The notes beneath the pieces are model-generated. The model worked only from the letters and a program-made list of their open reading frames with translations. It was not told the DNA's origin and ran no database searches. A program made the position numbers and the translations under genes. Of a stretch of DNA of 64,000 bases, positions 1 through 15,180 are shown piece by piece. Position 1 is the first letter of the stretch, and each line of letters begins with the position of its first letter. This stretch comes from Glaucostegus cemiculus (lineage: Eukaryota): positions 22,444,001 through 22,508,000 of the forward strand of contig CDPCPM010000106.1 in the NCBI GenBank assembly GCA_976551045.1. Reading direction: 5' to 3'.

Positions 1-938
1 AATATATGAGGGAATGTTTTTAAACTGGTGGATTGATTGCTGTTTATCCTCAGCACTGTGGTTGTATCATTGTAAGAGGATGAGAGAAGCAAAACAAGGA
101 AGCCAAAGCAGGAATTGGAGAGGCACCCAGGATGTGACAAAACAGAAAAGGAATTTGAGCTAATTAGTGTTTCCATGGCAAGACTGTACTGAAAAGGATG
201 CACATATTTTCCCTTAAAATTCTTACATTACATTGGCTGAACTTGTCTTATTGAAAACTCTTTTGCATTGCACATAGGATTTATTTTTGTTAATTAAAAG
301 GATTGTTTTGTTGAATTCAAGAGTCACCTTGTTAAATAATTTAATATTCTATAAAATCCCTGATGAGCCAACATAAATATTTATCATAAGATTATGTAAC
401 CATTCACAGTAGGATTTTGTAAATAAAGCAATTTGTAAGAAGTTTAAAGAAGTGTAAAAGGTTTAAGATCAAATATCTTTATTAGTTTGCTTTTAAATTA
501 AAAGCAAGTTTATATCATTTTTCAATGCTAAATTAAATACATGGTGTGGAATTTTCAAATTTTTAATTCTTTTAAATCTTATATTTTGATTTGGAATGAA
601 AACTGACAGGGTAGAGTTGACGTTCCTGAGGCATACTTTTTGCTGGCTAACTTGCAAAGTACTTCAACATAGAGTTTTAATCGGGAGATTGGAAGGCTTT
701 TTCTCCTGTAGCACACTTCCCACAGTTAAGTCTCATATGCAAACTAAAGCAAACGCAGGAGACAAACAGTCATTAAAGAGTCAACTTTCTGAGAAGCTGC
801 AGTTTGACCACATGGGGCTGAAATGTAATAGGGGAAGGGGAGAGTGCACAAGGTCGAATCTTCAGTGGCATTCATAATGTTGCACGATTGGCGGTGAAAA
901 TAGGATCACAACAGATGCTATTCAGTGTTGTGTGTGAC

Positions 939-956
939 AGAGAGAGAGAGAGAGAG
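939..956 (+). repeat. (AG)9 microsatellite
   Basis: AGAGAGAGAGAGAGAGAG read directly, preceded by a short TG run and followed by AGAGAGAG. Confidence 0.95.
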
Positions 957-2291
957 CACAAGAGAGAGCGACCAAAAAAGGGCGTTTCTTTGTCTGTACA
1001 GCAGGGAGACACTGAAATCGGTTGAGAGAAAAAAATGCAGTGGAAACCATTTGCCCAGAGTACTGCTTAAGATCCTGTGGCAGTTTTACAATCGAATAAA
1101 AGAAGTAAGTGTTTAAAACTCTTTTTAACCTCTACCTAAGTTCTGGAAAGTTGACAGGGCTGCTACAGGATTCTTTGTGGCTGAGAAAGCGTAACTGCAT
1201 CTAATTAGCCACAGAAGCTGACGTAGGCTATGGGATTAATCACAGCAGCTTTAGATTGCCCATGAGCCAACCAGTCGTGCTAACTTTCTTTAGACAGCAC
1301 ATGCTAAGGAAGGAGCTGCCCTGGGATTTTTGGAAAAGCTGGATAGAACGTGGAAGCTCTCAACACTCTTTTGTTCAACAGTAAAAGTTTGCCTTGCACA
1401 ACGTGACAGCTGGACACAACGTTTTCAAGGAAATTAAGTCAGTCATACCTCTTGCAGCTGGTTGTTACTGTTCATAAACCGAGGAGAAAGGATTTTTTTC
1501 CCCCAACATCTGGAGATTTAAGAAAAAAATTACCTGGATTAAAGCAGGAATAAATAAATAAGTGAACCTTGTCGGATGAGGATCTGAGCTGTTAGGCACC
1601 AGTGCATTTTAAATTGGAGTTAAACAGTGTAAACTTGTGCACCGACTGGAGTTGCAGGATTATGTCAAATATCTTCAACCTGAAAAGGATTGATTTATAA
1701 GTAATAAATGAACAATATTCTCTTTAAAGGAAAGCTCATCTGGAAACTTTTAGCCATTGTTCTGAAGTTGCACAGTTTTAAAAAATGCCATGATGTTGCT
1801 AAGAAAGGAAGCAGCTGAAGCTCCACTGATTGAAGAACTTCCTGTCTTTGAATCTGCCGGAATATCCGCCAAGAATCACTTTTCAAAAGAAAACATGTGG
1901 AATTTCAAGGACTGCCTCTCTTGCAGCAGCCGGGTATTTGGGCATTGTAGTTTGTGGTTAAAATGAAAGGAATTTACACAGAGTTGGAATACAGCAGTTG
2001 AAATACCTTATTCTTATCAGCCATGATGCATTTGAACAGAAAACTAGAGAGAATCTGACTTGAATGCACAAATGTGATCTGGCTGTTTCTCGTGGAATGA
2101 TTTTATAGATTGCCTGAGCTTCATTGATATGACAAGTGAGTAATATGTTGTTGGAATATCTAAACATTACAGAGTGTCTTTTGAATTAAAATATATGTGC
2201 ACACTTCTATTTTGGATTTGGAATACAGTTCATTAACTGTTTAAAACAAAATTGATCTATCTCTGTGGATTTTTGAAATTCCATTATAATT

Positions 2292-5200
2292 ATGGGGAAG
2301 CCACTCAGCAGGCCGGACTGTTTGCGACGTAATAATCCCACCTGTTTAAGAAAAAGTGAAGAGGACGATATGTACATTGAAGATTGTTACATTCCACAAA
2401 GATCCATATATGACACTATGAGAATTAATGAACAGATAGACCTCGGGACAAAGGCTACCCAGCCATCAAGAAGTTTTGTTGATCACTCACATTCGCAAAG
2501 CCAGAGAGCTGTAGATACTAGCACTTTATCAAGTAATGGAACTCCCACTACATCAAATGTATTTGAAACACGGACTAGTTCTGAAAGTAAAAAATTAGAT
2601 GAAAGACTCATATTTGATGCATTAAAACTGAGCAGTGATGTTATTCGGTCCTCTGGTCCACCAAAGAGGAGACCCCACGTAGAGAGGAAAGAAAACACAA
2701 ACAGGAGGTCCTGGAAAGCTTTCCTGCCTCCAAACTTCCCAGACTTCACAGAAAGAACAGAGGTCTCAGCAAATGAGCCGACAGGTAGTTCTAATTCAGT
2801 TAAAGAGAAGAGGCATTCTAGCCACTTGCCTATTGAAAGTCCTAATCTATCTCCTGAAAAAGAACTAGTCATAGTTAAGTCATCATTAAAAAATGAAAAC
2901 AAATCTGCAGGAACCCTGGCCTTTCAGCAAGGAGCAGAAAATAAATTGAAAGCTGCTGCAGTTTTATCTCAAAGTTCAGAAAGTGAAAGTGTTCCATTAA
3001 TGGAGTACAAAAATGTACTGGAGGTGACAAGATTTTTACCAGAGCATCATACAAGTATATCTGCAACATGGCCGAGAGCATTCAAGGCCAAAGGGATGTT
3101 GGAAGATGCCTCATTTCTACATAAGAGGACAAATGATCTGGCACAAGAAAGGAAAGTTACATATGCAGCATCTATAGAATGCCGAGGGCTGTTGGATTCT
3201 GGTGCAACCAAACTAGATATGCAAGAGGTTACAGCTGAATTTAATGAACAGAATTATGAAGCAGAATGTAAATGCCATGTAAATCTTGAAGTGGTGCAAC
3301 AGTGTGAAACTGAAGAAATGCTTTTTGCTTCAGAATTTCTTAGTGAAGAATTAGCGCTTCAGCAATTAGATGCAATAATCCTGGAGGGCAGAGGGGAAGA
3401 CACTGATTCCTTATTACAGTTTGAGCAAGAAGAGCGAAGGTTGACTGAGGAAAAAGACCTCATTGAAGATTTAGCACTTCAACAGCTGGATGGCGTAATC
3501 ATTAAAAATATAGATGACATGCTTATGCCAAGATTCGAAGAAGGACAAAAACTGATTGATGATGTAGAACCTGGAAAGAAACCATTTCAACGGTACGCTG
3601 TAATAGAAACCATGCAGGGAGATACTGAATCTCTTATACAATTTAAACATAATAGAAACCCTGTTGAAGATAAAGGATGTATTTCTGAAGAATCATTTCA
3701 TCTAGATGCTGCAACCTTGAGGGAGACAGAGGGGGATACAGATTCTCTGATACAGTTTGAAGAAATAGAGCGAAGCCTGATTGAAGACAAAGAATTTTAT
3801 GATGAGTTGGCATTTCAGCAACTCAATGCTGTCATTTTGGAAAACATGGAGGGATTCAATTTGAGGCTGCAGTCTGAAGAAGAAGATCGAAGACTGATCA
3901 AAGATGCAGAACTTCTGGATGAAAGATCGGCACTTCAGCATCTAGATGCTGTCATCTTGGAAAATACAGAGAGAAATACCGACTCTCTTACACGGTTTGA
4001 AGAAGAGCAAAGCCAGGCTGAAGATGTAAAATTCCATTTTGAAGATTCTGCACTTCCATTGGAAGCTATAACCTTGGAAAGCAATGAAGGAGATGCCGAC
4101 TCCCTCCTACAGTTTGAGGAAGAAGAGCGAAAGATGATTGAAGACAGCAAAGTTCTCTATGAAGAATCGGCATTTCAGCAGTTGGATGCTGTAATGCTGG
4201 CAAGCACAGATGGATGTTCAAATTCTTTGAGGTTTGAACAAGAAGAGAAAACAGTAATGGGCAAAGGTAAAATAATGGATACTGACATGTTAATAAAAGG
4301 GGAAAAAGAGTTTGTAGCTTTTCAAAAATTAAGCACTCCAGTTAATAGGAGTTCAGAGGAAGAGAAAATCTTTGAAGAGTTAGAAAGTAAACAGCAACAC
4401 AGGAGAATGACTACAACTGAACAAAGATCAACAACTTGTACAGATTGGGAAAATAACACTGATCGGAAAGAGGTATTGGAATGTACCCTTCTACAAGAAT
4501 GTGAAGCTAATCTTGGTGCCAGTGTAAATCAGCAAGAGGTTACAAATGTATCTAAAGAGGACTGTAATTTAAAAATCAGTCATGATGCCTCTGAAGAAAT
4601 TATGATCGATGCAGATGAGGTGTGCATTGATGAAAACATTAACAATGATGAAGAAACTGTATTTGCAACAGGAACTACAGGTATTGAATCAGAAGCCTTA
4701 ATTGATGGATGTGGAATGCTTAATACTATTATAGAGCATGAACAACTAAACTCTATTCAGTTGGAAGAATATGGAATGATTGCTCTGTGTCCTACAGCAG
4801 ATCCATGCATAACATCAGATTTAAATCTTGCTTGTTATGCTCAGGAAGTGGTCATGTTGCCTACTGTTGATGAAAATCAAGATATGCAGACAAACTTAGT
4901 CCAATCAAATGAAAATTTTGTTATTGAAAATTGTTCAACAGACTCCATTGAAGCGTCTTGTCTCGATCTCTCACATTGTGCTCAGCAGATGGCAACATTG
5001 CACAATGTGGTGGAGACCAAGGCTATACAGGCAGCTTGTGTCCAGTTAGAAGAATGTGAAATGGTTGTTGAGCCACCTACTACAAGTTATTCTCTCTATC
5101 CTTTAATACCTAATGTAGATCTCACAAACTGTTCTCAGGAAGAAATATGTTCAAATGTAATTGAAGAAGACTCTGATGTGGAGCAACTTCCTGGTGACTT

Positions 5201-5951
5201 TGGTGAAGGAGAGCAAGATTTTATTTCAGAAATTAAGAGCAGTAAATGCCTTGAATTTGAAGAATGCAAAATGCATGTTCAATCAGAGTTATCAAACTTG
5301 GAATTGGAATCTAAAGCAAGAGAGGTTCATGTGCTTCAGAAAGACAATCTCACTGATTTTCAGTTGGATGAACAGAAAGGTTTGATAGAGTCTGATGCAA
5401 TAATGTGCTCAGATGTTATAGACCCTGCTGCTTTACATCCAGTGGACATAGATACTACAGAAGAACCATGTGATAGTGATACCTCAAAAATAAATTCTGC
5501 ATCCAATATGGTTGTTGAAAACATTACATGTTGTAATGAGGTATTGTTGATTGATGATGATACCCAGCAGCCACTTGAAGCAATCAGGTTCCTTTTCCAA
5601 TCTGATGAAGATGAGGATATTGTCAAAACAACTGTGGAAGTACAAGCAAACAGAGCTCAAAGTTGGAAATCTGGCCTGCAGGCTGATTTGCAGGAAAATG
5701 TCTCCAGTTCATGCCTTGGTGATGACTTTATTGAAGTGGGAATGCTGGAGTATTTATTTGAGTCAGAGACACAGGAAGAATGCAATGAATCCAGTCCATG
5801 GGGATTGTCCTTGGACTCAGGTCCACTTGGTAAAATTTTAGAGACCAGTGGAGACTGCTTCAATGTGAAAACAGATAAACTCGAGTCTTCTGCTTTAAGT
5901 GAAGAGTTGGATACAGATGATGAGGTATTTATCTTCCTGTCTGATGCTTGA
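2292..5951 (+). CDS. KIAA0754: KIAA0754-like large single-exon ORF (1219 aa); probable alternative first coding exon of MACF1
   Basis: Uninterrupted 3660-nt ORF with strong Kozak context (A at -3, G at +4). The N-terminal ~150 aa (MGKPLSRPDCLRR..YIEDCYIPQRSIYDTMRINEQID..KKLDERLIFDALKLSSDV..NRRSWKAFLPPNFP) match my recollection of mammalian KIAA0754, which is nested in MACF1. The remainder is very acidic and repeat-containing. A candidate in-frame donor GAG|GTATTT lies at 5924/5925. Confidence 0.88.
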   Translation: MGKPLSRPDCLRRNNPTCLRKSEEDDMYIEDCYIPQRSIYDTMRINEQIDLGTKATQPSRSFVDHSHSQSQRAVDTSTLSSNGTPTTSNVFETRTSSESKKLDERLIFDALKLSSDVIRSSGPPKRRPHVERKENTNRRSWKAFLPPNFPDFTERTEVSANEPTGSSNSVKEKRHSSHLPIESPNLSPEKELVIVKSSLKNENKSAGTLAFQQGAENKLKAAAVLSQSSESESVPLMEYKNVLEVTRFLPEHHTSISATWPRAFKAKGMLEDASFLHKRTNDLAQERKVTYAASIECRGLLDSGATKLDMQEVTAEFNEQNYEAECKCHVNLEVVQQCETEEMLFASEFLSEELALQQLDAIILEGRGEDTDSLLQFEQEERRLTEEKDLIEDLALQQLDGVIIKNIDDMLMPRFEEGQKLIDDVEPGKKPFQRYAVIETMQGDTESLIQFKHNRNPVEDKGCISEESFHLDAATLRETEGDTDSLIQFEEIERSLIEDKEFYDELAFQQLNAVILENMEGFNLRLQSEEEDRRLIKDAELLDERSALQHLDAVILENTERNTDSLTRFEEEQSQAEDVKFHFEDSALPLEAITLESNEGDADSLLQFEEEERKMIEDSKVLYEESAFQQLDAVMLASTDGCSNSLRFEQEEKTVMGKGKIMDTDMLIKGEKEFVAFQKLSTPVNRSSEEEKIFEELESKQQHRRMTTTEQRSTTCTDWENNTDRKEVLECTLLQECEANLGASVNQQEVTNVSKEDCNLKISHDASEEIMIDADEVCIDENINNDEETVFATGTTGIESEALIDGCGMLNTIIEHEQLNSIQLEEYGMIALCPTADPCITSDLNLACYAQEVVMLPTVDENQDMQTNLVQSNENFVIENCSTDSIEASCLDLSHCAQQMATLHNVVETKAIQAACVQLEECEMVVEPPTTSYSLYPLIPNVDLTNCSQEEICSNVIEEDSDVEQLPGDFGEGEQDFISEIKSSKCLEFEECKMHVQSELSNLELESKAREVHVLQKDNLTDFQLDEQKGLIESDAIMCSDVIDPAALHPVDIDTTEEPCDSDTSKINSASNMVVENITCCNEVLLIDDDTQQPLEAIRFLFQSDEDEDIVKTTVEVQANRAQSWKSGLQADLQENVSSSCLGDDFIEVGMLEYLFESETQEECNESSPWGLSLDSGPLGKILETSGDCFNVKTDKLESSALSEELDTDDEVFIFLSDA
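3345..4250 (+). repeat. Coding tandem array of ~8 degenerate 37-40 aa acidic repeats in the KIAA0754-like ORF
   Basis: Units such as EELALQQLDAIILEGRGEDTDSLLQFEQEERRL, DELAFQQLNAVILENMEG, ERSALQHLDAVILENTERNTDSLTRFEEE and EESAFQQLDAVMLASTDGCSNSLRFEQEE recur about every 115-120 nt. Confidence 0.85.
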
Positions 5952-6031
5952 CATGTTTCCTGGGAAAATAGGTACTTAGGCATTACATGGAAACATTTTC
6001 AATTACTGAGCTTTATTCTCAGTGTCCTGTG

Positions 6032-6037
6032 AATAAA
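6032..6037 (+). promoter_or_regulatory. Candidate polyadenylation signal AATAAA
   Basis: Canonical hexamer 80 nt after the TGA at 5949-5951, followed by T/GT-rich sequence. The region is AT-rich, so chance occurrence is possible. Confidence 0.4.
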
Positions 6038-6314
6038 TTAGAAATGTGGAACTTCTACTTTTCAGTGGATTTTCAAACATATCTGCAGTATTTGTGGAAG
6101 TTTCAAGAAAACTGTAATGCCTCTTGTGTAAATTCAGCTTCTCAATGTCTTTCAACTCAAGGTGTATTAACTGTAGTGTTTGTGAAATATATTTACAATA
6201 ATGAGGAGGGAACATAAGCTGTCCTCAAGGCACAAATACTGAAGCTACGTTGTTGTCTGTTATTCATCTAATTATTTAGAACACAAAATGTATTTGTCTA
6301 CAGTGATGGCAAGT

Positions 6315-6705
6315 TCAGTTATGAGGAGAAGCTGGATTGGCTGGGTTTATTTTCTTTGGAGCAGAGGAAGCTGAGGGGGAATGTGACAGAGATGTACTGT
6401 CCCAAGAGGCATAGGTCAGATGGATAATGAGATACTTTACCCACAGCCAAGATGTCTAGAACTAGAGGGCATAGGTTTAAGGTGAGGATTAGTGGAGATC
6501 TGATTCCAGAGGGTGGTTGCAGTCTGGAATGTACTGCCTGAAAACGTGGTGGAAGTTGGTTTTCTCACAACATTTAAAATTTATTTGGACAAGCACTTGA
6601 ATCTCCAAGGCAAAGAAGGCTACAGACTAAGTACTAGTAAATAGGATTAGTGTAGATGGTCGGCATTAACATGTGGGCTGAAGGGCCTGTTTCTATGCTG
6701 TATGA
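6315..6705 (+). mobile_element. CR1/HER1-like LINE 3' fragment (decayed)
   Basis: Typical CR1 3'-end motifs (gttatgaggagaagctgg..., ctagagggcataggtttaaggtg) and tail gggctgaagggcctgtttctatgctgtatg. Confidence 0.75.
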
Positions 6706-7039
6706 GCATCCTGCTCAAAATTTCAGTAACATAACAGCGCAAGGTATAATGGGAGAAAACAAATGCACAATGGGTTGTCATGATTACTTCAGACAATAAT
6801 AGGTTAATATTTCAATACTGAAATAAGGATTATTTAGATTCATATTGTATAAAGATTGCTTATTCAGTAGCTCTGAAGTCTACAAGTGCATACATCAGAT
6901 TACAAGTCAGGCCTCAGACTTAACTTTTTGGTGATTTGTATGTATGACTTGAATCTTAATGTGCAGATGCAGGCAGACATATGTTTGATTGTTAAAAATA
7001 TTTCTGTTGATCTGATTTAAAGAATGTTTTGTGTTCATT

Positions 7040-7600
7040 CACCAGATGGAGTTGTAGCTGGTAAGGCGAACATTACCCTTCACTCATTGTGTGAGCATCC
7101 AGTGGTGTACTGCCTTCTCTAACTGTTGCATTCTATTGATGAAGATGCTTAGAGAAAGCCGTTAGAGAGCTCAGCATATTTTCTCAGCAATAATAATGAC
7201 ACAGCAAGATGGTGTGCAACTTGGAGTTTGTATTCTCTTGCACCTGCAGCCATTGTCCTCCTAGTTAGAACAGGTCATGAGTATAGTCAAAGAAATTTTG
7301 GCAAGTTGCTGCAATATTGACAATAAACACGACTGCTGCTGGATGCTGGTGGTGGTGGGTGGGTGGGTGGCAAAGATTGTGCATGAGGAGATAATTAAGC
7401 AAATTGCTCTGTCCTGAATAGAGTGAGTTTCTTAAATATTTTTGCACTCTGCGGGTGATGGAGAGGTGTTAGTTGGTTGGGAGATGAACCCATTCACTGC
7501 AAAATACCAATCATTTTATTCTTATTCATTTTCTGGGATCTGGGCTTAGCTAATCCATACCTAGTACCTAATGCTCATACCTAAACAGACCTGTGATATA
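7040..7600 (-). mobile_element. 3' fragments of a CR1/L2-clade non-LTR retrotransposon
   Basis: Resembles the minus-strand copy at 54520-54990 and the reverse complement of 61900-62225. Boundaries approximate. Confidence 0.5.
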
Positions 7601-7609
7601 TTTCCAAAT

Positions 7610-8545
7610 TGGTCATAAAGTGTACAACACAGAAGCAGGCCCTACAGCTCATCACATTTTTGGCAACCGTTTGGCCTATATACACTAATTCCATTTGTCT
7701 GCATTAGGACTGTATTCTTCTGTACCCTGCTTATTTAAGTGCTTGTCTAAGTATCTCTACAATGTGGTGATTGTATCTGACTCCATCTCTTCCTCTGGCA
7801 GTGAGTTCTAAATATCAACCATTCTGTGTTGTTTAAAAAAACATTCCCCTCAAATCCCCTTTTAATTCCCTTCCTCCCACCTTAAACCTCTGCCATCTTG
7901 CTTTTGATACCCCTACCTTGGGAAAAGGATTCTGATCATCTACTCTACCTGTGCCTCTTGTAATTTTATACACTGCTGTCAGGCCACCCCTCAGCCTCTT
8001 TCACTCCAGGGGAAATAAACCCAGCTTATCCAAACTCTTCACATAACTGAAGAGCAACATCCTGGTGAATCTCCTCTGCTTTCTGGCACAACCACATTCT
8101 TCTTATAGTGTGGCAACCAGAACTGCACACAATACTCCAAGTGAGCTCTAACCAGTGTTTTGTAAACCTACACAATAACGTCCCAACTTTTATATTCTGT
8201 GCCCTGACCTATAAAAGCAAGCATGCCAAATGCCTTCTTCACCAGTCTCCCTGTCTGTGTTTCTACTTTACGAGAACTGTGGACTTGAACCCCAAAGTCC
8301 CTTTGTTCATCAGCATTCTGTAGTGCCTTACTATTTACCATATGTATACCACCCACTATTTTACTGCCAAAATGCATCACCTCGCACCTCCTCAATAAAG
8401 GAACAACACTAGCTATCCTCCAGTTTTCTGGGACCTCATCTCTGGCTAACAAAGAGATGCAAAAATCTCCATCAGGGTTGCAACTATCTCCTCCCTTGCT
8501 TCCCATGGGCACCCTGAGGTAGATCTCATCCAATTTATCAACCCT
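7610..8545 (-). mobile_element. CR1/HER1-like LINE fragment
   Basis: Minus-strand ORF 8168-8608 has CR1 ORF2 remnants (EVPENWRIASVVPL; CEVMHFG; QRDFGVQVHSS..VKKAFGMLAFI). The reverse-complement tail is at about 7612-7650. Confidence 0.85.
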
Positions 8546-8549
8546 TGTG

Positions 8550-9620
8550 CATTCCATAATGGTTTGTGACTTGGAGGAGATACTGTTGGTAGTGATGCTC
8601 CCAGGCACAAGCTGTCCTTGTCCTCCTCCGTGGTTGGAGGCTTGGGAGGTGCTGTCAAAGCATTTTGTAGGTGGTACACTCTACAGCCACTCTGCGCCAG
8701 GGAATGAATGCTTATGTTAGTGGATGGGCTGCCAGTGAAGCTGGCTATTTTGCCTGGATGGTGCTATACTTACTAGGAATTGCACACAACCAGGCAAGTA
8801 TCCCATTATACTCTTCACTTCTGGTGTGCAGACAGGAAGTCAAGAGGTGAGACATTTGCCATACGACACTCAGTTTCTGACCTGCATCCATAGCCATGGT
8901 ATTTGCTTATCTGTCTGTTCAGTTGAGATCTTGGTTAACAATGACCACTTGCCCCTAGGTGTTGATGATGGGGGCAAAGGTAGGTGGTTAGATTCTCTTT
9001 TGTTGGAGGTGATCTTTGCCTGACAGGTGATCCATATGCTATTTGCTACTTGCTAGCCCATGCCTAAATGTTGTCTAAGTCTTACTGCATGCAGGCGTGA
9101 ACCATTTTATTTGCTGAACAGTTGTTAATGAAATTGAATATTGTGTTACATCCCCGTGAGGATCTCCTGCAGTGATGATTGACCTCGAAAGGTTGACCTC
9201 AAGCTACCACAGTCATCTTCATTTACTTGAGGATGACTCCAGTCAATGGACTGATTTCCTTGTTAACCAGTCTTACCAATGCTCTTTGCTGTCACACTCA
9301 GTCAAATGCTGCCTTGACATCAAGGGCAGTCATTCTGGTCTAACCTCTGGAATTTAGCTCTTTGGGCCATGCTTGGACTAAAATTGTGATGAGATCTGGA
9401 GCCAAGTGATAACAAAACCCAAATTGGGCATTGGCAAGCAGCTTATTGGTGAGTAAGTACTGCTGGATAGTATTGACAATAACATTTTCCTTCACATTGA
9501 TTGAGAGTAGGCAGATTGCAGTAATGAACCAGAATGGGTTTGGCCTGCTTTTTGTGAACTGGACATTCCTGGGCAATTTTCCACAATGTCGAGTGAATTG
9601 AAGATTGGCTTCTCTGATGG
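8550..9620 (-). mobile_element. CR1/L2-clade LINE fragment (RT and 3' region)
   Basis: ORF 9340-9576 contains LLANAQFGF..APDLITILVQAW..ELNSRG (RT region). Same family as the + strand copy at 60640-62225. Confidence 0.75.
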
Positions 9621-9874
9621 TGTGGGTCTCAGCTGGAGACCTACTCCGCCAGCCACAGGATTTTGTGCGGATAGTTAAGTTGATTATTTAGTCAATGGGT
9701 GACACCCCTATGCAGCTCGGGATAGGTCAACAATATTCTACCTCAGTTGTTGCTCATAACAGAGAGGCTGGGAAAGAGATTCAGCAGGATGTCGTCAAGG
9801 ACGGAGCATTTCAGCTACGAGGAGCAACTGGTAGACTGTTTATTTTCTTTCGAGTAGGAGATGGGGGGGAGAGA

Positions 9875-10110
9875 CCTGGCTGAGGTATATGAAATTACGA
9901 GAAAGCACAGATGGGGTAAAAGTTTAACGTAAGGGGTGGTTGAAATCCGGAATGCACCACCTCAGGTGGCTAGTCAAGGTAGCTATTCTGACATTTAAAA
10001 AGTAATCAGATGAGCAAATGGTAGAGAAGTTCATGGGTCGAGTGCTGGGAAATGGGCAGCACACACACAATGCGCCGAAGGCCCTGTTTTTGTATTGTCT
10101 GATTCTTTAG
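9875..10110 (+). mobile_element. Short CR1/HER1-like 3' end
   Basis: gaggtatatgaaatta... and tail gccgaaggccctgtttttgtattgtctgattct resemble other CR1 tails in the window. Confidence 0.6.
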
Positions 10111-10779
10111 CTGAGATTTGCTTTTTTTTCCCTATTTTCAGGTGTTTTATGTGCATTAGAAGTATTCATATTGCATGATAAGTATATGCCAAGGTCTTGT
10201 GCTTTCACATTCCTTCTCTATTTTGAATGTACTGTGTTTACAACTGTGAAAGCTATTAGATCATTTTCTGGTGTTGATCATTTATAAGGTCATGCTTGGA
10301 TTCTTGGATCAATTCATTCTTGGATCTCTAAAAGCAGAAGTCTTGAAAACATCTTGAGTATTTGCACAAGGTTGGCGTGATGGAATCAATAACCTGTGTA
10401 GCATGCTGTCAAAATTTTTTTTTCAAATGTTCATTTGAAGTTGTCTGTTTTGTGTCATGGCCTAACACAAAATGAAAGTGTAATCTTTAGTTAATAACCT
10501 GCACATACTATGCCCTTTGGTTTGGGAAATCACTTGAATGTTAAGACATGGGAATATAGAATCCATGGGCATTGGCTTTGTGTGGCAGACAGCTGGAATT
10601 GAAAGTTGATTCTTCCATTCGTTGCTGAAACTGCTAACAAATTGGTCTTTCCGGATATATTTAAAAAATAGATTTAGTTTTAATTAAGATAAAATGTTAT
10701 TGGTCAGTGTTTTCAGTTGCTTTGCTGGTGCCAAATAACACACACTTCTCAACCATTGGGGAGGATTTCCAATCCCATT

Positions 10780-12590
10780 GACACAAGAATTAGAAGCTCC
10801 GAGTAAGTTATCTGATCACGTGGCTGTTCTCCTATTCAGTGAGATCATGGCTGATCTTTTGCTTTAGTGCCTCTTTCCTACACTAACCCCATATCCCTTG
10901 GTTCCCTTAATTATTTAATAATCTTTTGCTCTCTGTCTCAGCAAAGTCACTTTACAGCCAACCAGAGTGGTGAATTTCCAAGATTCGCTGCCTTCTAGAT
11001 GAAAAAATATATTTCCTCATCTCCATCCTGAATGGCTAACCCCTTATTTTGAGACTGTGACCACAGGTTCTAGACACTTAAGACATCTCAGCCAAGGGAA
11101 AATTCAGTTTTGTATTGGCCTTGTCAAGCCCATTTTGATGTTTCAATGAGATTACCTCTTTTAGACTTACAGGCTTGAGAGTACAAGTCTAGTCTGCTTA
11201 ATCTCTTATACGATAAACCTGCCATTTCAGAACTCAACCCATTGAACCTTTGTTATGCTGCTTCTGTCACAGAATATCCTTCCTTGGGTAGGGAGACCAA
11301 ACCTGTACCCGATATTTTCAGTCACCTGAGACTCTATAATTAGAGAAAAACAGTTCATCTTGTACTAAAAGTCACTTTTATTAAAGACCAACATACCATA
11401 TGCATTCCTAATTGCTTGCTGAATCTGCATATTAACTTTGTGACTCAGGTACAAGGATTCCCAGACTTCTCTTGACACCAATAACTTATGATCTCTCTCC
11501 ATTTAAAAACAAAACTGTCTTTTATTTTTTCTTCTTCCAAAATGACTGATTCACATTGTCCATGGTATGTTCCACCAGCCATTGCCCATTCATTTACTCT
11601 GACTGTATTCCCCTGAGGCCTCTCTGCCTTCTCCTTGCAGCCCATTTTGGTACTTAAGTAGTATTAGTAAGGGAACATGGCTACATTGTATTTGATCCCC
11701 TTATCCAAGTCATTGTTAAAGACTGTGAATAGCTGATGCCTTAATACCAATCCCCTCGGTACCCCATTCGTCACAACTTGAAAATGACCCATTTATCCCT
11801 CTGTTTTTTGTCAGGTAACCAGTGCTCAATCCACACAAATATATTGTCCACAATATCATGTGCTCTAATTTTATTTAATGATCTCTTACCAAAGGCCTTG
11901 TGAGAGTCAAAATATACCACATTAACTGGTTCGGCATTGACTATTCTGCTAGTTGCAGCCTCAGAAATTCCAATGGATTTGTCAAATATTTTTCTCTTTC
12001 AGAAATCCATGTTGATTCTCCAAAATCCTCTTTGTTTTCCACTTCCCTAACAACAAATTCCAGCATATTTCCCACTGGCTGGTGTCAGGCCAACTGGATC
12101 AATAGTCTTCTCTCAAGTAGTTGGTCCCTTCCAATCTGTAGGAAATCTTCCAGAATCTAATGTAGAATTTTGTAAACTGATAATGATTCTACCATCACCA
12201 ACGTAGCTTCCTTGAAAGCCGTAGGATGCATGTCATCAAGTCATAGGGATTTATGTCCTTTCAGTCCTATTAATTTTTCCAACACCTTGTTGCATTTTTC
12301 TTTTACTAATGCTGATTACTTTCAGCTCCTCATTCACTCTAGACCTAGATACCTCCACAACTTCTAAGCTTTTTTTTTTCCTGTGTCTTCCACAATGACA
12401 ATCAAAATGCTTGTTTAATTTCTTTGTCATTTCCTTGTTCACTAATATAGTTCTCCCCTCTCAGTCAAAAAATGACCCTCTTTCACTTGTGCTAATCTTT
12501 TCCTTTTACATTATTTATAGGGGCTCTTACAGTTAGTTTGCTTCTCACTAGCTTACACTGGTATTCTACTTCCCCTTTCCTTATCAATGC
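10780..12590 (-). mobile_element. Old CR1-like LINE, heavily degenerate
   Basis: Reverse-strand CR1-like segments (gagatcatggctgatct; cccttattttgagactgtgacc; tcccaccagcc..gcccattcatt) and ORF remnant NKEMTKKLNKHF. Confidence 0.65.
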
Positions 12591-13781
12591 CTGTTAAATC
12601 ACTAGGCTCATGCATGTTGGATTTATACTTAATGTTTATAAATTGTTATCTGAAGACTGATCATCCGAAATCACGTATTTGGCCTCTGCAAACTATTTCT
12701 GAACATTTGGTGTCAGCATTTTTTGTATGACTTTCCTTGGTATGACTATAGTGTGCAATGATTACTCCAAACCTAAAAGAATTAACCTAGTGACTTTTTA
12801 TCTAGCTAGTTTTATACATAGTTATCTCAAAAGCTATAATATGCATAAAAACCATTTTGTAAGAGTTGGATATCTGTTTCCATTTCCCAGAAATGTGCAG
12901 GTGAATTCTGCAGTCAAGGAAATGTTTTATACCCAAGTTTATGCTCCTCGAAGATAAATTCCACTGATAGAATTAAATCAAAACATGATTTTGTTTTATA
13001 CCTGTAGGAACAGACCAAGCGAGAGGTATATTCTCTTCTGCAGATGACAAGCAAGAACTTCTCTTGAAGGGCTGAAATTAGTTTAAATAAAATCTTAAAC
13101 AAATAAAGGAATTATTTTAAGTGATAGTTGTGAATAACTAAAATACAGAATCTTCAAAATTTTACCAAAGACTACTAATAGAATCAGAAAAATGTCAACA
13201 CAGGAACTCCACTGAAAAGATGATGATAAGAAATATCAACAAACCACATGCCTTTCATACTCTTTTTTTCCAGGCCTGTGATATGTATAGAATATCATTA
13301 TTTATAACGTGAGGGAAAGGTTGGAGTTTCTATAGATTTTTACGTTTATTTGGTCATTATACATGTGTTATTCACATTTCTTAGTGTTCTTTTAAATATT
13401 GAGTAACGAGTTTTTTTTTACATATCTAGGTTGAAATGTGATCTGAGTTCCTATGTTTTCAGATCCCTGGAGGTAGCATTACTTTCACGTCAACTTTATT
13501 ACCATCTTTGGCTTGCTCTTTGTCTTGGATAATGTTTGTTTAAAAAAAATTGCATAGACCTCTCAAACTAAAATTCAAGCTATCCTTCCATTTTGTACCT
13601 TTGAGCTTGATTTCAATCTGTCCTGTTTTCCAAGAGATCTTTGTATCTAAGTTATTTTAATTTTGCATTGTCTTTAGTACAGTTCACACCATAAATCCTA
13701 TATCCCTTGAGGAAATTTCATTGGATAATATTTCATTGTGACCTTTTGTGAGCAGTGTTGTTTTTCATTCTTCCATTTCAG

Positions 13782-13943
13782 ACATTCCAAAAGGTTCAGG
13801 TGGATCCTATACAATACAAACTTCAGCAGGCCAATGGAGTAGGCCAGGGTCTTATTCAGAGTGCTGCAAAGAATGCTAATACACAAGGACTTGAACATGA
13901 TCTAGATGAAATTAATACCAGGTGGAACACACTCAACAAAAAG
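13782..13943 (+). CDS. MACF1: MACF1 spectrin-repeat exon ([11 protein letters not shown]...RWNTLNKK), phase 0-0
   Basis: ttccatttcag| acceptor, |gtcagt donor, 162 nt. Peptide matches the recalled MACF1 rod ([24 protein letters not shown]). Confidence 0.95.
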
Positions 13944-15180
13944 GTCAGTTTTTCCTTTTCATTTGTGAAAAGCAACTTTTTTTGGTGGGGGGGTGTGAGG
14001 GTAATATAAGTCATTTATTCTAAAGGAAAAGTATTAGAAACTATCTTTAATAATCTCTGTACACTGAGACTGTATAAGCAATGATTAGTTCAAAGGAAAT
14101 TTGGTTCGTTCCTTAAAATAACAAGTTGATCCATCAATTGAGACTTCACCACTTGTCTCTGGGTCTTTTGCAATTTTGACTTTGCAGAATTATAGCAGGT
14201 CAACATACAGAAGTGGCAGGCACAGGTGACAGATCCCTCTCAAGAAAATCAAGACCACCCATATTTTGTGACCATTCGAAACGTGTAGTATAGAACACAT
14301 TATTTAGAAGTGCAATCACAGTTGCTTTTGAGTTGAACCTTGCGGCCATTTTCCATGTGTAGATGCCAACAAGTCTTCCATTAAATCAAGCCAATAGTTA
14401 TAGAACAGAAAGAGACCAACTTCAATCCAGCCCATATGAATGATATTTAGCTTTGGTAGGGTAGCACTAAAGTGATTATAATTGACTTTGCTGCACGTTG
14501 TTTCCACTCCTGAGAAGTTCCAGATATCTCTGTTGAAACTGTAAGTACACATAACAGATGATGGAAGATCTCGGTTCCCTCTGTGTTCCTAAGCAATTGA
14601 ATAACCAAACATCACTCATTGTGAGCTGATACAAATTAAAAGGCAATTGGATGAGCATGCGAGTGTACTTAAACACCATTACACATAGAGCAATGAGAAA
14701 AAGATTTTACGAAAATCATAAATTGATAAAGATAATTAGATGTTTAGGTTCCAGAGTTGAAAGAAATATTTGCAATTTAGACAAGAAAAATGGGCTCTGC
14801 TTCAGCTGAAATACAAAAGAATAATTCAACAGGTCTTAATTCATAAAAGCAATGTCTGAACATTTGCCTTGTTTCAGTTACGGTTTTAAACCCATTGATA
14901 ATCATCTACCCCCTGTTGGTGCCCTGTGGGACAGCAGGTGGTGAGTCATGTCCACCATGGCAGATGATTGTCCACTTTCAGTTACTCCTTTCCTTTGCCT
15001 CTGCCACTTCATCTCTTCCCTATCCCCAACTCTTACCAGCACCACCCCCACTTCCCAGCCCTCTCTGTTCTTCTCTTCTTTCCCTCCAATCAGTTCACTC
15101 TTAATATTTGCCTTGTTATTTGCTTTCTACTTGAGGAGCGGAAATTAAAATTGTTAATACTGTTTGTAATTTTTTTCCAG

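Follow-up and report, generated by a model that had tools for sequence, protein, structure and literature searches.

A KIAA0754-like giant exon inside MACF1 of Glaucostegus cemiculus: a probable alternative first exon with a predicted lipid anchor

The DNA considered here is a stretch of 64,000 nucleotides from the genome of Glaucostegus cemiculus (contig CDPCPM010000106.1, positions 22,444,001 to 22,508,000 of the forward strand; the whole stretch is called the window), and its subject is a giant exon with a long open reading frame (ORF) located inside an intron of the spectraplakin gene MACF1. A first-pass annotation had placed here an ORF, a splice donor close to its end, an AATAAA hexamer and the next MACF1 exon, and each of these features is present (Table 1). 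In the flanking genome stretches, the 3′ end of the preceding canonical MACF1 exon lies about 14.8 kb upstream of the window (at about position -14802) and carries the phase-0 donor AAG/GTAAGA (slashes mark exon boundaries), and the next exon begins at 13782, so that the ORF lies within a MACF1 intron of about 28.6 kb. From there on, a chain of 30 predicted exons encodes the spectrin-repeat rod, which is 78% identical to wombat MACF1 and 67% identical to bat dystonin; its 1694 aa agree with the at least 1692 aa of spectrin repeats counted earlier, and 5 of its 30 predicted donors read GTATT, as had been remarked of several donors in the window. The EF-hand and GAR exons, previously assumed from the known architecture of MACF1, are located in the genome just downstream, 5–16 kb past the window end, with 71–96% identity. 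In window positions 1–15000, no Rfam match was found.

Sequence comparison identifies the 3.6-kb exon as a cartilaginous-fish orthologue of KIAA0754, which is filed in protein databases under MACF1 isoforms 6/7. First of all, its N-terminal head matches the homologue P0094 with an E value of 3e-55 and 66% identity; head identity is 66% with mouse isoform 7, 57% with the dystonin copy of this genome and 48% with the hagfish copy. Moreover, the exon is located in the intron just before the rod exon marked by xFQK-QVDP, which is the exon that the fused database records join. Head homology, grouping with the MACF1-type heads, the same MACF1 intron and a phase-0 donor near the ORF end together bear out the KIAA0754-like identity first proposed, and the suspected cartilaginous-fish origin is supported by a head identity of 91% to catshark versus 68–70% to coelacanth and turtle. 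A search with the first 160 aa returned 65 long proteins (2135–5000 aa), 230 of similar length (120 listed) and 196 short ones (120 listed), among whose names are "KIAA0754 homolog", "MACF1 isoforms 6/7(-like)", MACF1 and dystonin.

The in-frame fusion of this exon to the MACF1 rod is a well-supported predicted product. All 65 long proteins carry precomputed spectrin domains, and they come from frog, marsupial, birds, reptiles, teleosts and, as dystonin, placental mammals; fused MACF1 records exist for human, chimpanzee and orang-utan. Directly behind the head, every fused MACF1 or dystonin record examined has an exon homologous to that at 13782–13943. Measured on the full-length dystonin P0223, the rod is entered at the position corresponding to residue 2916, and the rod, EF-hand and GAR exons of the canonical spectraplakin are retained downstream of the junction. 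As for the front end, no calponin-homology (CH) actin-binding domain was found in the 1219-aa product, which matches no Pfam family at all, or in the fused homologues P0003 and P0022, and no plakin domain in these two, where spectrin, EF-hand and GAS2 were the only families to pass curated cut-offs. The reading frame, the phases, the domains present and the conserved junction agree with the first-pass annotation, which had put forward a fusion to the rod without an actin-binding or plakin domain.

The conservation of the splice donor was surveyed in 318 head-bearing proteins, 74 of them fused and 244 without the rod exon, using the pre-junction segments of the fused ones as probes. The junction could be located in 180 of the 244 rod-less homologues, many of which are close kin; the next residue is Val in 164 of these 180, as a phase-0 GT requires, and the last residue before the junction is one of the three amino acids encoded by NAG (Glu, Gln or Lys) in 171. 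This pattern spans sharks, teleosts, reptiles, birds, mammals and both paralogues. Among the fused MACF1-type records, as judged by eye, the head ends in Glu at the junction in 30 of 44. In human, for example, the fused record reads NSDE/MFQK and a near-identical stand-alone record NSDE VIVVHF, and the catshark fused model reads DIE/TFQKV. At the DNA level, the donor is AAG/GTAAAT in the dystonin copy of this genome and CAG/GTGCAC on a fish dystonin-type contig. Taken alone, the donor at 5925 is mediocre, ranking 10th of the 174 GT sites in 2292–6100 under an approximate weight matrix; it rises above chance because it is conserved in homologues, and nothing comparable is shown for the AATAAA. 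The position in the same intron and the phase-0 donor kept across vertebrates, which had been named in advance as the features to look for, were both found through the head search. In addition, nine Logan contigs of 7.7–10.1 kb (three cluster representatives and six members of one cluster) carry unbroken head-plus-rod dystonin frames of 2551–2692 aa, and therefore represent spliced RNA. For window positions 4900–6060, no RNA data set was listed. In two listed runs from one sample of a related species, the 5924–13782 joint was not among the 15 joints listed of 978; exon and intron are covered alike in these runs at about 94–97% identity, so they are DNA and are uninformative on expression.

These results bear directly on the idea that the exon is an independent nested single-exon gene and that the fused records are artefacts of annotation or reflect rare read-through splicing. 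The mouse exon has long been annotated as a separate short gene overlapping Macf1 (excerpts of PMC3936758), and the junctions of some fused models look implausible. However, both paralogues retain NAG/GT where the ORF ends, MACF1, dystonin and hagfish all continue with the same rod exon, and the fused dystonin frames on Logan contigs are unbroken; a nested gene is regarded here as very improbable.

Table 1. Features of the giant exon and its surroundings, in window positions
Feature	Positions	Strand	Remarks
Conserved non-coding stretch, likely internal promoter or 5′ untranslated region	600-2291	+	low divergence from related species
Giant-exon ORF	2292-5951	+	1219 aa + stop; D+E 21%, K+R 9%
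Conserved head, aa 1-160	2292-2771	+	MGKPLSRPDC start; YxPQRSIYDTxRxNEQID, LDExxxFDxLKL and RRSWxxFxP motifs
Acidic fast-evolving linker, aa 161-1211	2772-5924	+	by composition
Eight imperfect ~40-aa repeats, aa 350-653	3339-4250	+	self-profile; one copy weak
Phase-0 splice donor GAG/GTATTT	5922-5930	+	G at 5925, after codon 1211, 8 codons before TGA
Read-through tail VFIFLSDA + stop	5925-5951	+	translated only if donor unspliced
Candidate polyadenylation signal AATAAA	6032-6037	+	80 nt past stop; ~9% chance odds
First shared MACF1 rod exon	13782-13943	+	AG-flanked, phase-0 acceptor, starts TFQKV; 96% to catshark
Predicted 30-exon chain, spectrin-repeat rod	13782-63827	+	AG/GT chain, stop-free, 1694 aa

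The genome holds one other copy of the head, a 434-aa ORF at G000:C292:503379-504683 (L008:379-1683) in the dystonin gene. Its phase-0 donor follows codon 423, 11 codons before the stop, and the copy is flanked by exons homologous to those around the MACF1 copy, the next rod exon being near C292:513523. In a 28-row tree, with rows chosen from the hits, the MACF1-type and dystonin-type heads split at 100/100, and each group includes cartilaginous fish. Searching 1.84 billion representatives with a profile produced 56 hits, of which every one with a source name is from a vertebrate and the rest are unnamed, which suggests that the exon is absent outside vertebrates. The hagfish model P0359 has the head, a linker of about 450 aa, the same rod exon and 10 spectrin stretches; its head groups with neither clade (support 91/90 and 89/89) and sits on a long branch, too long for the order of events to be read from its placement. 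Judging from the shared position, the exon would predate the duplication that gave MACF1 and dystonin, and it is older than jawed vertebrates because the hagfish gene model has it. The ancient jawed-vertebrate arrangement named in the first-pass annotation is thus right as to antiquity, and its age and breadth were understated, since the exon also occurs in dystonin and in hagfish. Between the MACF1 and dystonin introns, only repeat-like non-coding matches were found besides the coding match of the head.

A divergent copy of the head also exists in teleosts (P0373, P0364, P0366, P0367, P0377-P0379 and P0382; L026:390-944), one cluster of which is named si:ch73-305o9.3. It starts with MGKPLSRPGC and has extra cysteines, and in P0373, the one teleost copy scanned, no Pfam family and no spectrin domain were found; it may be a duplicate head that lost its rod. 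A metagenome scan with the head pattern gave three loci, two of them fish-like. The match at L027:54-1097 was rejected as chance, being by eye a P-loop ATPase that resembles a clamp-loader subunit.

The most constant part of the exon product is its beginning. The four head motifs (the start MGKPLS(R/K)PxC, Tyr, LDExxxFDxLKL and RRSW) occur in 332, 320, 313 and 294 of 338 head-bearing proteins, respectively, and the first of them stands at residue 1 in 293. An in-frame TGA lies at 2274–2276, and the letters from there to the ATG contain no AG, which leaves no in-frame acceptor that could lead into the ORF start; together with the 293 of 338 proteins that begin at the same Met, this makes the exon start a true N-terminus and not a cassette. 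The product begins with Met-Gly and has Ser at position 6, as expected of an N-myristoylated protein: the motif usual for myristoylation combines Gly2 with Ser at +5 (excerpts of PMC10696250), and BPAG1a3 is a precedent for a myristoylated first exon (excerpts of PMC3352950). Therefore the head N-terminus is predicted to be of the myristoylation type and to be held at membranes by a fatty acid, and nearby cysteines could carry palmitate. This invariant start (332/338) had escaped the first-pass annotation. The myristoylation of MACF1 described in PMC4200515 was considered for the head site and ruled out, as it takes place at another site, G5087, after caspase cleavage; in PMC4171495, no passage on myristoylation was found. 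As for folding, the structure model of the head is of low confidence (pLDDT 51, pTM 0.18, three short helices), Foldseek of this model against the PDB gave no match at E <= 0.001, the head profile gave none against PDB sequences at E <= 1, and a structure-atlas search with the mouse homologue returned only scores of 0.78 or less to generic disordered proteins. The head looks like a set of short conserved motifs in a disordered chain.

Such motifs also allow the reading that the fusion is real and the head unlipidated, the rod being targeted by protein-binding motifs alone (the Tyr motif, the RRSW motif and the short helices). All four motif blocks are kept in 87–98% of the 338 proteins, Lys right after Gly2 is disfavoured in some myristoylation patterns, and no match was found in two myristoylome supplements. 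On the other side, Gly2 and Ser6 belong to a start that does not vary between hagfish and mammals and is also present in the divergent teleost copy, and myristoylated proteins with an MGK..S start are known, such as the neuronal calcium sensors. An unlipidated head is considered unlikely.

Behind the head, the linker changes quickly. The whole exon product is 71% identical to its close homologue P0067 and 49% to that of catshark, and the linker repeats number 8 here, 7 in P0067 and 6 in catshark, with DNA self-matches of 65–71%. Near the position of the repeats, a single TESELxFEEDE motif is present in 169 of 178 MACF1-type proteins and in 0 of 139 dystonin-type ones. The repeat and this motif align pairwise in register, yet their profiles do not cross-hit; homology of the repeat to the bony-vertebrate linker motif is thus suggested by pairwise alignment only.

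Upstream of the ATG, the DNA is conserved. Compared with DNA of the related species, 28 of 1113 letters differ in 1152–2267 and 8 of 324 in 600–923, whereas 209 of 3651 differ in the intron (Fisher p 6e-6 for 1152–2267 versus the intron); the comparison used three intron-only contig pieces of run X2, excluded two exon-containing pieces, and has low depth. The stretch fits an internal promoter or an untranslated region. A GA-dinucleotide microsatellite is located within it at about 924–971. There are also strong donor-like sites before the ATG, at 1105 (GAA/GTAAGT) and 2136 (CAA/GTGAGT), and in the dystonin copy CAG/GTAAAT at L008:172, 207 nt before the ATG; donor-like sites upstream of both ATGs could mark non-coding leader exons or rod-only transcripts.

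The first-pass annotation had described two outputs, the fused protein and a stand-alone one of 1219 aa. Both kinds of product are real database records: the mouse stand-alone protein is RefSeq NP_001161390 (KIAA0754), 1115 aa, which is the UniRef entry "Isoform 7 of MACF1 isoforms 6/7", and human NM_015038 is cited as KIAA0754 exon 1 inside MACF1 (excerpts of PMC4450850). The novelty of the dual output was overstated, because fused and stand-alone proteins are already on record together as MACF1 isoforms 6/7. The layout of a composite terminal exon is indeed present, that is, an internal donor, then an in-frame stop, then AATAAA. This hexamer occurs 61 times on the + strand of the window, which gives odds of about 9% for one in any 100 nt, and three copies lie inside the ORF itself. 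In the dystonin copy of this genome, the donor has an ATTAAA at +148 but no AATAAA within 4 kb, and in the fish dystonin-type locus L025 the first AATAAA is 436 nt past the stop; its position is thus not kept in either of the two dystonin-type loci. The tails after the donor in homologues vary from 2 to 100 aa (median 22), and those of mammals, birds, reptiles and fish bear no relation to one another, as expected from intron read-through. Very high-copy interspersed repeats, with depth up to 1e5, occupy 6300–6705 and 7600–8550, beginning about 270 nt after the AATAAA, and are also matched in the dystonin intron.

It might be supposed that a regulated switch operates here, in which splicing competes with cleavage at the AATAAA and the 1219-aa protein is itself selected, for instance as a membrane scaffold or a dominant-negative head. 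Stand-alone forms are on record in mouse and human, the donor is weak, P0067 (71% identical overall) shares the same 8-aa tail, and the rod-less teleost P0373 suggests that the head can persist without a rod. However, the tails are unrelated between clades, the hexamer is common and its place is not kept in the two dystonin-type loci, and many stand-alone records are plain ORF calls on possibly genomic contigs. The switch is therefore held to be possible but doubtful. In the first-pass annotation, the AATAAA at 6032 was correctly located and the competition between splicing and intronic polyadenylation was overstated, given a common hexamer and an unconserved tail. The competition is unproven, the evidence for the stand-alone product appears weaker than that for the fusion, and the stand-alone protein is best read as a secondary product.

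In summary, the preferred explanation is that the exon is the KIAA0754 orthologue and likely an alternative first exon spliced onto the rear part of MACF1, yielding a predicted lipid-anchored linker protein; a probability of roughly 0.7 is given to it. Transcription would begin within the conserved stretch before 2292, from an internal promoter. GAG/GT at 5924/5925, whose sequence and conservation are seen, would be spliced in frame to the exon at 13782, and the joined frame would comprise 1211 aa of head and linker, 1694 aa of rod and about 570 aa with EF hands and GAR, about 3470 aa in all, with no CH or plakin domain. After removal of Met, Gly2 is predicted to be myristoylated, possibly with palmitoylation of Cys10/Cys18, and the acylated head would sit on membranes and offer its short conserved motifs to partners. 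With the GAR tail on microtubules, the protein might tether microtubules to the membrane over a long spacer. Without use of the weak donor, the frame would extend eight codons into the intron, and such stand-alone mRNA is on record in mouse and human.

Several points weigh against this explanation. The donor score is low (0.4, where the 29 donors of the window range from -1.0 to 8.0), and 14 of the 44 fused MACF1-type records end the head in a residue other than Glu, about 11 junctions looking mis-predicted by eye. Among the Logan hits, no contig with a fused MACF1-type frame was found, and the MACF1-type fusion comes from annotation records. Nineteen ATGs lie between 1105 and 2291, which is awkward for a long 5′ untranslated region, and the upstream conservation comes from one sample of one related species. 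Both the splice and the start site in this fish are inferred rather than observed, and myristoylation is a reading of the motif by itself. The terms GKPLSR, KIAA0754 and O94854 are absent from 6 supplementary files of PMC4200515 and from 3 of PMC10696250 (54,000 characters; tables may be incomplete), an absence that is uninformative if the isoform is unexpressed or outside the search databases of these studies.

A broader proposal is that all vertebrates make an unrecognised class of lipid-anchored "mini-spectraplakins" from internal promoters of MACF1 and dystonin, in which an acylated 160-aa head outside any known family replaces the actin-binding/plakin end to form a microtubule–membrane tether, that this predates the duplication, and that the head can also be released without the rod; the chances for and against it are judged to be even. 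The window itself adds a cartilaginous-fish member to an exon whose two products are already in protein databases, and what goes beyond the records is a twin in dystonin, a copy in hagfish and the prediction of a lipid anchor. If the proposal is true, a plakin-less, membrane-anchored isoform that both paralogues and hagfish have retained would fill a gap in spectraplakin biology. Knockouts or patient lesions upstream of the internal exon would then spare this isoform, and lesions in EF-hand/GAR would hit it; variants filed under "KIAA0754" would be MACF1 coding variants, all of which would matter for mouse knockouts and for human variants in MACF1 and dystonin.

In the published record, excerpts of PMC8012552 list six MACF1 isoforms of 600–800 kDa, with a plakin domain in all known ones, and the isoform lists in the parts seen of PMC11989829, PMC12918444 and PMC3352950 do not include the present isoform. 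The "novel isoform" of PMC9365387 was considered and ruled out, as the term refers to a mutant allele. In the literature searched, which mostly leaves subscription journals outside, no functional study of this exon was found; the mammalian isoform is present in databases yet apparently unstudied.

Among known systems, the closest is MACF1 isoforms 6/7, in which the head is 66% identical over 160 aa, the junction and rod exon are the same, and stand-alone and fused records both exist (judging from the names, isoform 6 is the fused form). Unlike in those, the linker is barely alignable, there are eight 40-aa repeats instead of the one motif of bony vertebrates, and the tail is 8 aa versus 25 aa in mouse. 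The unnamed internal first exon of dystonin (DST/BPAG1), whose head is contained in the human cDNA FLJ26213, has the same head, intron position, phase-0 donor and next exon, but its linker is about 270 aa against about 1050 aa here, the MACF1 linker motif is missing from it, and its donor in this genome is stronger (3.8 versus 0.4). The described isoforms MACF1a1-3, MACF1b, MACF1c, MACF1-4 and BPAG1a1-3 likewise have a spectrin rod, EF hands and a GAR tail and use alternative first exons, and BPAG1a3 also has an N-terminal myristoylation motif (PMC3352950, in part). What sets them apart is the plakin domain, present in all known MACF1 isoforms, and sizes of 600–800 kDa (PMC8012552, in part). 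The isoform of the present exon would have neither plakin nor CH domain and would measure about 3470 aa. A further parallel is found in dystrophin, whose short isoforms Dp260, Dp140, Dp116 and Dp71 arise from internal promoters. There too, an internal first exon leads into a spectrin-repeat rod and the actin-binding end is dropped, but those first exons add few residues, whereas here a 160-aa head and a long acidic linker would be added.

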